The notes beneath the pieces were generated by a model. That model did not search any database. It saw only the letters and a list, made by a program, of their open reading frames with translations, and was not told the DNA's origin. This document shows, piece after piece, positions 14,763-57,273 of a stretch of 64,000 nt of DNA. A program made the position numbers and the translations under genes. The stretch's first letter is position 1. Each line of letters starts with the position of its first letter. Source of the stretch: a virus. The stretch lies in IMG/VR virus record IMGVR_UViG_3300031951_000015, positions 96,001 to 160,000 of that record; one strand, given 5' to 3'.

Positions 14763-14791
14763 AAAAAAAGGAGGGAATCAATCCCTCCTTT
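14763..14791 (-). terminator. rho-independent terminator
   Basis: AAAGGAGGGA-loop-TCCCTCCTTT followed by a U-tract. Confidence 0.8.
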
Positions 14792-14794
14792 GAA

Positions 14795-14893
14795 TTATTT
14801 TGCCGCTACCAGCGTAGCAAGAGATGCTTGTTTACGACGTTGCTCTTTTTGCTTTTGCTCTTTAATGAGTTGAAGGAAATTGAGTTTTTTCAT
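14795..14893 (-). CDS. 32-aa basic peptide
   Basis: MKKLNFLQLIKEQKQKEQRRKQASLATLVAAK; ATGA overlap and GGAGG upstream. Confidence 0.6.
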   Translation of the reverse strand: MKKLNFLQLIKEQKQKEQRRKQASLATLVAAK

Positions 14894-15027
14894 TTGTGCC
14901 CCTCCTTTACAAACTTAATACCACGATAGGTTTCGTTGTATTGTTGGGGTTGCTGCATCATCTGCTGTTGATATGCAATACGCTTTTCGGTATCGTATTC
15001 AACACCGCGATAAACTACTTTCGACAT
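14890..15027 (-). CDS. DUF4278-family small protein
   Basis: MSKVVYRGVEY...ETYRGIKF (two YRG motifs); AAGGAG RBS. Confidence 0.75.
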   Translation of the reverse strand: MSKVVYRGVEYDTEKRIAYQQQMMQQPQQYNETYRGIKFVKEGHK

Positions 15028-15057
15028 TGGTTTTCTCCTTAGTTTTTAGGTTAAAGA

Positions 15058-15285
15058 GCGTTCCTTCAGTCGGCTTTTGCGTCTACGAAGCAACCTTTTC
15101 TTGTAACTTGTTTAATCTCCCAAACAATATCATTCTTTTGTTGAGAAGTCAGTGTTTGGTTGATATTAACTTTACCAATCAAAAACTGTGCCTGTAAGCA
15201 AGTTAAGAAAAGTGCTTCCATAGATGAACGGCTTCGTTCCGAGTCGGCTTACTTCCGTTCGCTATTCGAAAATAGCGAATGAACG
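15058..15285 (-). ncRNA. tandem glutamine (glnA-class) riboswitch
   Basis: Aptamer 1: CGTTCA-ttcgctatt/aatagcgaa-CGGAAGTAAGCCGACTCGGAACG. Aptamer 2: CGTTCA-long P2-CGCAAAAGCCGACTGAAGGAACG. Lies upstream of a DUF4278 gene. Confidence 0.75.
15066..15221 (-). CDS. 51-aa ORF embedded in riboswitch aptamer 2
   Basis: MEALFLTCLQAQFLIGKVNINQTLTSQQKNDIVWEIKQVTRKGCFVDAKAD. Confidence 0.55.
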   Translation of the reverse strand: MEALFLTCLQAQFLIGKVNINQTLTSQQKNDIVWEIKQVTRKGCFVDAKAD

Positions 15286-15292
15286 TAAGGGT

Positions 15293-15345
15293 ATTATACC
15301 CTTGTTGATCGTATTTATCAACAATATTTTGTAATTTTTTATACA
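15293..15345 (-). promoter_or_regulatory. NtcA box with -10 element and late promoter
   Basis: TGTA-N8-TACA at 15330-15345; TAAATA at 15312-15317; TATAAT at 15293-15298. Confidence 0.55.
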
Positions 15346-57114: not shown

Positions 57115-57230
57115 TTTAAAAGAGTAGTAAGACCATCAGGGAAATGGTGGAGTTACTATTCCCCAGTCACCCTCAGACTGGGTATGAGAGACGTTCTTAT
57201 ACACCCATAGGTCTCGGTTAACGGGTGTTT
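57115..57230 (-). ncRNA. structured psbA leader (PhotoRC-II-like)
   Basis: Stems ACACCC/GGGTGT, CCCAGTC/GACTGGG and ACCAT/ATGGT plus a GAGAC/GTCTC pairing, directly upstream of phage psbA. Confidence 0.65.
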
Positions 57231-57273
57231 AACAATGTAACGAATTATGAGAGATCCGTAACATTTGTTTACC

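Follow-up and report, generated by a model that had tools for sequence, protein, structure and literature searches.

A conserved small gene enclosed in the P2 arm of a tandem glutamine-type aptamer of cyanophages

Riboswitch aptamers are generally treated as non-coding. In the glutamine-I aptamer the junction base G23 forms a ligand-dependent Watson-Crick linchpin with C60, located just after helix P1 (PMC11477058, PMC6212724), and in the gifB leader translation is switched on when glutamine captures the C that follows P1 and melts the adjoining helix that masks the ribosome-binding site (PMC6212724). Glutamine-II RNAs have a CGCA junction and a C19:G41 pair (PMC6698751). Tandem glutamine riboswitches were surveyed by Sherlock et al. 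2022, with 157 doublets and 4 triplets; that work treats the tandems as independent, pseudo-cooperative units and leaves out cases with intervening open reading frames (ORFs) (PMC9481103). The element analysed here is a tandem of two glutamine-I-type aptamer units, the second of which encloses a complete small gene. It is located in a stretch of 64,000 nucleotides (nt), referred to as the window, which covers positions 96,001 to 160,000 of IMG/VR virus record IMGVR_UViG_3300031951_000015. The record comprises 174,667 bases and derives from a T4-like cyanophage, whose nearest cultured relatives belong to the Kyanoviridae and are Synechococcus myoviruses from fresh water and estuaries. All coordinates of the locus are given on the minus strand, on which a promoter is followed by the two aptamer units, a gene for a putative DUF4278 (IF17-like) protein, a 32-codon ORF and a terminator.

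The first unit consists of a CGUUC strand (CGUUC no. 1, 15281..15285), a P2a hairpin that is short in the window (15258..15279), the canonical glutamine-I junction J2/3a (CGGAAGUA, 15250..15257; the second G, at 15254, serves as linchpin base X1) and the P3a strand AGCCGACU (15242..15249). These are followed by a segment (15226..15239) formed by GAACG no. 1, an AAGC linker and CGUUC no. 2, the last of which opens the second unit. The base of the second P2 arm, P2b, is formed by a 5' strand UCUAU (15220..15224) and a 3' strand GUAGA (15082..15086). Beyond it lie J2/3b (CGCAAA, 15076..15081), which resembles the glutamine-II CGCA and of which the second C is the linchpin base X2, a P3b strand identical to P3a (AGCCGACU, 15068..15075), and the segment 15058..15067, which includes J3/1b (GAAG), GAACG no. 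2 and the linchpin base Y2 (C at 15058). At the DNA level the 3' half of the second unit, GTAGA-CGCAAA-AGCCGACT-GAAG-GAACG, has its end at 15059. With a length of about 140 nt, the P2 arm of this unit accommodates an entire ORF of 51 codons plus UGA (15066..15221), free of internal stops. Its start codon (ATG, 15219-15221, within TCTATGG) begins at the fourth base of the P2b 5' strand, the P2b 3' strand also codes Val46 and the start of Asp47, and its stop codon (TGA, 15066-15068) falls in the aptamer core, in the junction ahead of GGAACG. The original prediction, which had been made from this sequence, described CGTTCA at 15225-15230, a split 3' half and a 51-codon ORF whose AUG is buried at the base of P2 and whose stop codon lies in the core; all of these features are found where it placed them, with the AUG at position 4 of P2b.

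Comparison with relatives without the ORF identifies the second unit as an aptamer with an ORF inserted in a defined slot. Phage S-CREM1 has a homologous locus, annotated by its authors as a glnA riboswitch, in which the second unit consists of CGUUCA, a 22-nt hairpin and then ACGCAAACGCCGACUGAAGGAACGC. The sole change in the second unit of the window is the replacement of this hairpin by UCUAU, the ORF and GUAGA. The cultured phages S-SRM01, DSL-LC02 and DSL-LC03 have an ORF at the corresponding place, annotated in two of them as a hypothetical protein; a tblastn search of cultured phages found these three and one marine single-cell virus only, short queries being insensitive in such searches. 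A scan of viral contigs for the 3' half alone gave at least 120 stretches, and the matches listed include 68 split, 47 simple and 5 truncated elements. In each of the 68 split elements among these listed matches an ATG is located 9-11 nt past the first base of CGTTCA, and the ORF, 49-66 codons in length, is intact, so that the stops or frameshifts named beforehand as grounds for refutation do not occur among them, and in 67 of the 68 the stop is the core UGA. In later scans the number of distinct split loci rose from at least 68 to 135, and in all 135 the nested AUG begins at P2 position 4, 5 or 6. A protein-guided scan of viral contigs added 35 loci, all of which start with CGTTCATCT-ATG and end with ..DAKAD-stop. 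In 185,579 species genomes the phage-type 3' half occurs nine times, always on metagenome-assembled or single-cell contigs from unrelated phyla, and these occurrences are probably phage DNA binned with cells. The contigs concerned (L260-L268) carry assignments such as Acetobacteraceae, Dehalococcoidia, Bacteroidota and Prochlorococcus single cells, and one of them equals an IMG/VR phage contig in length (189,106 bases).

The pattern of variation within the insert marks the nested ORF as a real, conserved gene. Among 30 distinct close homologues the entropies of the three codon positions in codons 4-44 are 0.61, 0.38 and 1.14, with most variation at third positions. The ratio of nonsynonymous to synonymous substitution rates (dN/dS), a check that the original prediction had proposed for the nested ORF, has a median of 0.17 over 341 sequence pairs and lies below 0.5 in 98.5% of them. 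Insertions and deletions among the homologues stay in frame, residues C8 and C44 are invariant, and proteins with as little as 22-25% identity to that of the window still align with it from end to end. AlphaFold2, supplied with a 47-sequence alignment, predicts a two-helix hairpin (predicted local distance difference test, pLDDT, 85; predicted template modelling score, pTM, 0.62) with helices at residues 8-20 and 26-39 and with the N- and C-termini side by side. The protein of the window matches the phrog_504 profile (expect value, E, 1.6e-4), as do 44 of 48 diverse aligned nested ORFs (best E 5e-25), and a profile search retrieves 853 protein clusters, all named hypothetical. Pfam yields no family for the protein, a Foldseek search against the Protein Data Bank gives nothing at E <3, and in the ESM Atlas only hypothetical proteins are matched. 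A leader peptide of the mgtL type does not fit an ORF of 49-66 codons with a dN/dS of 0.17, invariant cysteines and a pLDDT of 85.

The possibility that the frame is untranslated, and the insert merely a long structured RNA arm, is scarcely credible. It would agree with the lack of a clear Shine-Dalgarno (SD) sequence ahead of the nested AUG and with the long stem into which the insert of the window folds; against it stand the three-base periodicity of the variation, the low dN/dS, the frame-keeping indels, the invariant cysteines beside variable third positions, and the confidently predicted protein fold.

Conservation of the RNA around the gene points in addition to an RNA fold under selection. 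The five base pairs (bp) at the base of P2b covary across 140-200 nt of coding sequence in 135 distinct loci, with variants UCUAU/AUAGA, UCCUU/AAGGA, UCCUC/GAGGA and UCCCA/UGGGA. Three positions covary: pair 3 is U:A in 101 loci, C:G in 30 and U:G in 4, pair 4 is A:U in 88, C:G in 16, U:A in 7 and U:G in 11, and pair 5 is U:A in 81, A:U in 22, U:G in 12 and C:G in 2. In total 95.4% of the cells of the P2b base are paired, compared with 79.9 ± 1.3% in 1000 shuffles (maximum 85.5%). P2a covaries as well. In the 30 close homologues codons 46-51 and 1-3 hardly vary at their third positions (entropy ∼0.08); codons 46-51 double as inner junction, P3b and J3/1b, and the frozen synonymous sites imply that the RNA dictates both ends of the protein. 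Compared with synonymously resampled versions, the natural codons lower the folding energy in 30 of 30 sequences (mean z = −1.96); as these sequences are related, they do not represent 30 independent trials. The pairing probability of the P2 base is 0.80 with natural codons versus 0.60 after resampling. The 173-nt element of the window, with a closing stem of 28 pairs, folds at −41.6 kcal/mol (z = −2.96 versus dinucleotide shuffles), and none of 200 such shuffles folds as well. In all 135 loci the ends of the insert are paired; the closing stem reaches 5 pairs or more in 99% of them and 15 or more in 38%, and the part common to all is the 5-bp base. RNAalifold applied to the 30 close homologues retained P1 and little more, a result that reflects the limits set by the alignment and by coding conservation and is not evidence against P2.

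The long stem was described in the original prediction as a pairing of the ORF ends over roughly 25 bp. A stem of 28 pairs is indeed present in the window, but a stem of 25-28 bp is specific to the lineage of the window. In the alignment of 30 homologues 84% of the long-stem cells are paired, versus ∼44% when the partners are slid. Compensatory changes, another of the proposed checks, are found in the 5-bp base and do not exceed shuffle controls in the long stem, so that only the 5-bp base is claimed here as conserved.

How the two units are arranged with respect to each other is indicated by a small set of covarying positions. The linchpin base X1 of the first-unit junction and the base that follows GGAACG of the second unit (Y2) are complementary in 189 of 189 distinct phage tandems (G:C in 136, C:G in 53), and the second-unit junction base X2 pairs as C:G with the base following GGAACG of the first unit (Y1) in 177 of 189. 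In the majority class, linchpins within one unit would instead bring together G.G and C.C, and such pairing matches in 14-16% and fails in 84-86% of the 43 ORF-less tandems that were aligned. Likewise, the last base of P3a and the first base of P3b are paired in 100% of 183 loci (U:A 148, A:U 17, G:C 16, U:G 2), with a similar range in 43 aligned ORF-less tandems (U:A 26, G:C 11, A:U 6), whereas a P3 closing pair within each unit matches in 60% and fails in 40% of the sequences. The two strands AGUA (J2/3 of the first unit) and GAA(G) (J3/1 of the second unit), which build the E-loop, are completed solely by combining the units; neither unit alone holds both. Since the linchpin and P3 pairs covary between the units, the first CGUUC is expected to form an outer helix with the last GAACG, leaving GAACG no. 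1 and CGUUC no. 2 to close the inner hairpin around AAGC. Both strands of this hairpin are invariant, and their partnership is deduced from the adjoining covarying pairs. The minimum-energy folds of an ORF-less tandem and of the 229 nt of the window also pair CGUUC no. 1 with GAACG no. 2. These data indicate that the units are interlocked rather than arranged side by side, and a fully nested fold is the simplest reading. The pairing of the 5' half CGUUC (15226-15230) with the 3' half GAACG (15059-15063), on which the original prediction had built its second aptamer, is probably not formed, as covariation places the linchpin and P3 pairs between the units. A covariance model built here for the interlocked tandem (R1) was unable to span the 229-nt element, matching the first unit alone and skipping the interior.

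In the interlocked fold the outer core would comprise CGUUC no. 1, P2a, CGGAAGUA, the P3 duplex of the two AGCCGACU strands, GAAG, GAACG no. 2 and the G:C linchpin. Inside the P3 duplex an inner core would be made up of the hairpin of GAACG no. 1 and CGUUC no. 2, P2b and CGCAAA. The nested AUG follows the inner hairpin directly, at 5 nt from CGUUC no. 2, and the nested stop lies 3 nt before the 3' strand of the outer P1. Judged from ribosome footprints, initiation at this AUG would need CGUUC no. 2 and the P2b base to be single-stranded, an elongating ribosome would unwind P2b, the inner junction and P3, and a ribosome at the nested stop would cover GGAACGC, thereby removing the outer P1 and its linchpin. 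Because the ribosome must in this way unwind the aptamer, the nested gene could not be translated on an RNA molecule while that molecule holds the glutamine-competent fold. Mutual exclusion of this kind had already been proposed in the original prediction; it now has strong structural grounds, as a deduction from ribosome footprint and helicase activity, not a measurement. At high glutamine the fold would be locked, with the nested AUG hidden and the nested gene off, while capture of the C after the outer P1 would release the SD sequence of the DUF4278 gene and turn that gene on, as proposed for gifB. When glutamine is low, translation of the nested gene would proceed, the sensor would be held open and DUF4278 would remain off. 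The direction assigned to the DUF4278 switch is taken from the gifB work (PMC6212724). The architecture itself, as judged by its recurrence across the loci compared, is real and conserved. That it constitutes a two-site glutamine-I-type riboswitch, interlocked and with one protein-coding P2 arm, in which nested translation and the glutamine-competent fold exclude each other and DUF4278 is toggled reciprocally, is moderately probable. More tentative, and rather doubtful as a whole, is the extended proposal of a ribosome-gated switch with two outputs, in which the locked double aptamer silences the gene of its P2 arm and opens the IF17-like SD, translating ribosomes erase the sensor, and a single 0.55-kilobase transcript yields one protein at low and the other at high host glutamine.

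Several observations weigh against the reciprocal arrangement or against parts of it. In the window the first unit scores 31.2 bits with Rfam model RF01739, short of the cut-off of 35, with no detection of the second unit; at the gathering threshold the aptamer element is not called and a PhotoRC-II RNA is the sole match. Relatives without the ORF score 33.5-35.4 bits with the same model, and the published glnA match of S-CREM1, at 44 bits, covers both units. The X2:Y1 pair is a C.A in the window and not a Watson-Crick pair. The P1 strands CGUUC and GAACG are invariant across 183-189 loci, each P2 hairpin following directly after CGUUCA; variants that could separate a swapped from an unswapped P1 are absent, the apparent ones being spurious matches inside ORFs, and the strand swap is read from few covarying positions, which correspond to perhaps three or four independent evolutionary events. 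The covariation of the long P2b stem does not rise above the controls, as described, and no obvious SD precedes the nested AUG. In the expression platform (15035..15057) the anti-SD sequence (C)UCUUUA and the SD UAAGGAG can form a 7-bp hairpin (−4.5 kcal/mol); the pairing probability of the SD is 0.76 versus 0.63 in shuffled controls, so that sequestration is not clearly above controls. Finally, the ORF of S-SRM01 reads on into the anti-SD, which fits a positive coupling of the two genes better than a toggle.

Such a coupling is the main rival explanation: glutamine would control initiation at the nested AUG, and ribosomes finishing the nested gene would open the anti-SD hairpin and turn DUF4278 on by translational coupling, so that both proteins rise together. 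The geometry is suggestive, with the nested stop 38 nt upstream of the DUF4278 AUG and a terminating ribosome that would unwind GGAACGC beside the anti-SD; in S-SRM01 the ORF continues into the UAA of the anti-SD, and the downstream 32-codon ORF is likewise coupled through an ATGA overlap. Known footprint sizes imply, however, that once UGA occupies the A site the channel of the ribosome would reach only about the first anti-SD base. In ORF-less phages the same DUF4278 platform is regulated though no ORF precedes it, and activation of the nested gene by glutamine is hard to see when the glutamine-bound, folded core hides its AUG. Coupled activation is unlikely, and the reciprocal toggle is favoured over it. 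The toggle is likewise favoured over the second rival, according to which the distal part of P2 tolerates any insert, as do the loops of group I introns that hold homing-endonuclease genes; the riboswitch would then act only on RNAs that are not under translation, and no regulatory logic would link gene and sensor. The presence and absence of ORFs in both arms in all four combinations, the exchange of short P2 hairpins between arms, and the identical CGUUCA and ACG flanks, which would favour recombination, all agree with a mere passenger. On the other side, the AUG always occupies P2 position 4-6, the ORFs in P2b take their C-terminus and stop from the aptamer core (those in P2a stop ∼13-16 nt before it), no separate SD or spacer has evolved even at 25% protein identity, and codon choice favours RNA structure. 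A passenger is somewhat less likely still than coupled activation.

An insertion that destroyed the second unit, whose halves would then be relics while the first unit alone senses glutamine, would account for the Rfam detection of only the first unit in the window, and that below cut-off. It is very improbable, given that both halves are invariant in 135 loci while the enclosed protein diverges to ∼25% identity, that the synonymous sites of the 3' half are frozen and that P2 covaries across the insert. Moreover, a first unit on its own would be without the GAA strand of the E-loop and without a Watson-Crick linchpin.

A second, seemingly unrelated family of ORFs is found in the P2 arm of the first unit, which is split in 27 of 112 contexts bearing a 3' half of the first-unit type. 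These P2a ORFs open with CGUUCAUCCU-AUG and have 66-69 codons, a hydrophobic N-terminus and two conserved cysteines; their stop codons closely precede the P2 strand AUAGGA and are ∼13-16 nt short of the junction. Their AUG lies within CGUUCAUCCUAUG, ∼12 nt from the predicted transcript start. Examples are L011:1237-1490, L036, L039, L069 and L160, together with about 27 further viral loci. The 183 distinct tandem loci comprise 86 with an ORF in P2b only, 43 without an ORF in either arm, 34 with ORFs in both arms and 20 with an ORF in P2a only. An hhalign comparison of the P2a and P2b families gives a probability of 28%, although their cysteines align. The hairpin UUCGCUAU..AUAGCGAA serves as P2a in the window (15258-15279) and also in L180 and L243, and as P2b in most ORF-less tandems (alignment A6, e.g. 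L210). The P2 arms behave as cassettes that are swapped between the units, with recombination at the CGUUCA and ACG flanks, which are identical, as a possible route.

The remainder of the operon agrees with the layout given above. A sigma-70-type promoter (15293..15321; TTGATA, a 17-nt spacer and TATAAT, with 11 of 12 consensus matches) predicts a transcript start ∼1-3 nt ahead of CGUUC no. 1. Immediately 5' of the −35 hexamer lies TGTA-N8-TACA (15330-15345), a box of the NtcA type (GTA-N8-TAC), the centre of which is ∼51 nt from the likely transcript start; the usual activating position is nearer. The downstream gene predicted to be regulated (14890..15027) encodes a putative DUF4278/IF17-like protein of 45 amino acids with YRG motifs, which matches phrog_5049 at 5e-12 and, weakly, Pfam DUF4278 (19.8 bits, E 1e-3, under the cut-off of 25.3). 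The basic 32-codon ORF (14795-14893), which matches phrog_545 weakly (E 0.05), overlaps the DUF4278 stop with its start in ATGA and ends at an intrinsic terminator (14767-14791); it may encode, in coupled fashion, the operon's second small protein. Elsewhere in the window the PhotoRC-II RNA (57148-57240, minus strand, 78.8 bits versus a cut-off of 39) is an ordinary cyanophage cis-regulatory RNA.

Full-text literature searches, the coverage of which did not extend to Ames and Breaker 2011 or Ren et al. 2015, retrieved no gene inside a glutamine aptamer, none inside any other riboswitch aptamer and no account of glutamine tandems as interlocked. The claim in the original prediction that no riboswitch with a gene nested in its aptamer has been described is in line with these searches, and the architecture appears undescribed so far. 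Surveys drop tandems with intervening ORFs (PMC9481103) and covariance models working in short windows miss them, which explains how a widespread architecture could remain unannotated. If the interpretation is correct, a ligand-binding RNA core doubles as the coding region of an mRNA, with the ribosome as a second input to the switch, and the tandem glutamine riboswitches, at least in cyanophages, represent one interlocked two-site sensor, not two independent switches. It would also tie the abundant phrog_504 small proteins to host nitrogen status and to IF17-like regulators of glutamine synthetase, giving this family its first testable context.

The phage element shares several parts with glutamine-I RNAs (glnA RNA, RF01739; Synechocystis gifB/IF17 leader, PMC6212724), namely the CGUUC/GAACG strands of P1, a P2 that follows CGUUCA, the E-loop junctions CGGAAGUA and GAAG, a G:C linchpin beside P1 and, as in the gifB leader, a gene downstream, here for a putative DUF4278 protein, with an anti-SD adjoining the linchpin C. 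It differs in that a conserved protein is encoded in one P2 arm, which extends over 140 nt, that the canonical junction strands are split between two interlocking units, that the element of the window falls under the Rfam gathering score, and that the phage type of tandem is found in cyanophages and not in cultured cyanobacterial genomes. As in the tandems of Sherlock et al. 2022, two glutamine units are arranged head to tail ahead of one gene, but the covariation indicates that the phage units pair with each other, and ORFs lie inside the units. A CGCA junction and a C:G linchpin in the inner unit recall glutamine-II (Downstream-peptide motif, RF01704). In contrast to glutamine-II, no P2 pseudoknot helix enclosing GGAACG was found in the phage element, and the equivalent of the inner P1 is closed by a loop of 3-4 nt, implying a circular permutation. 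The phage tandems mix features of both described glutamine classes. The first unit of P-TIM68 (L005:941-994), which belongs to the C:G-linchpin class, obtains 28.8 bits with RF01704 (cut-off 33) and is not scored by the glutamine-I model.

Group I introns with homing-endonuclease ORFs offer a further parallel, as there too a gene resides in a helix loop of a structured RNA, the helix closes across the ORF, and the presence of the ORF varies among relatives. The phage host RNA, however, is a ligand sensor in a 5' leader and not a ribozyme, its ORF starts within the helix and, when located in the second unit, has its end inside the conserved core, and the encoded protein is a predicted two-cysteine helical hairpin of 50-70 amino acids and not a nuclease. 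In the Mg2+-sensing mgtA leader of Salmonella, which also has an ORF inside a ligand-sensing leader, translation of mgtL reportedly decides the RNA structure (Park et al., in 2010), and the product is said to be a 17-codon sensor peptide without a function of its own. Unlike mgtL, the phage ORF encodes a conserved and, by prediction, foldable protein, and it is located in the aptamer itself.

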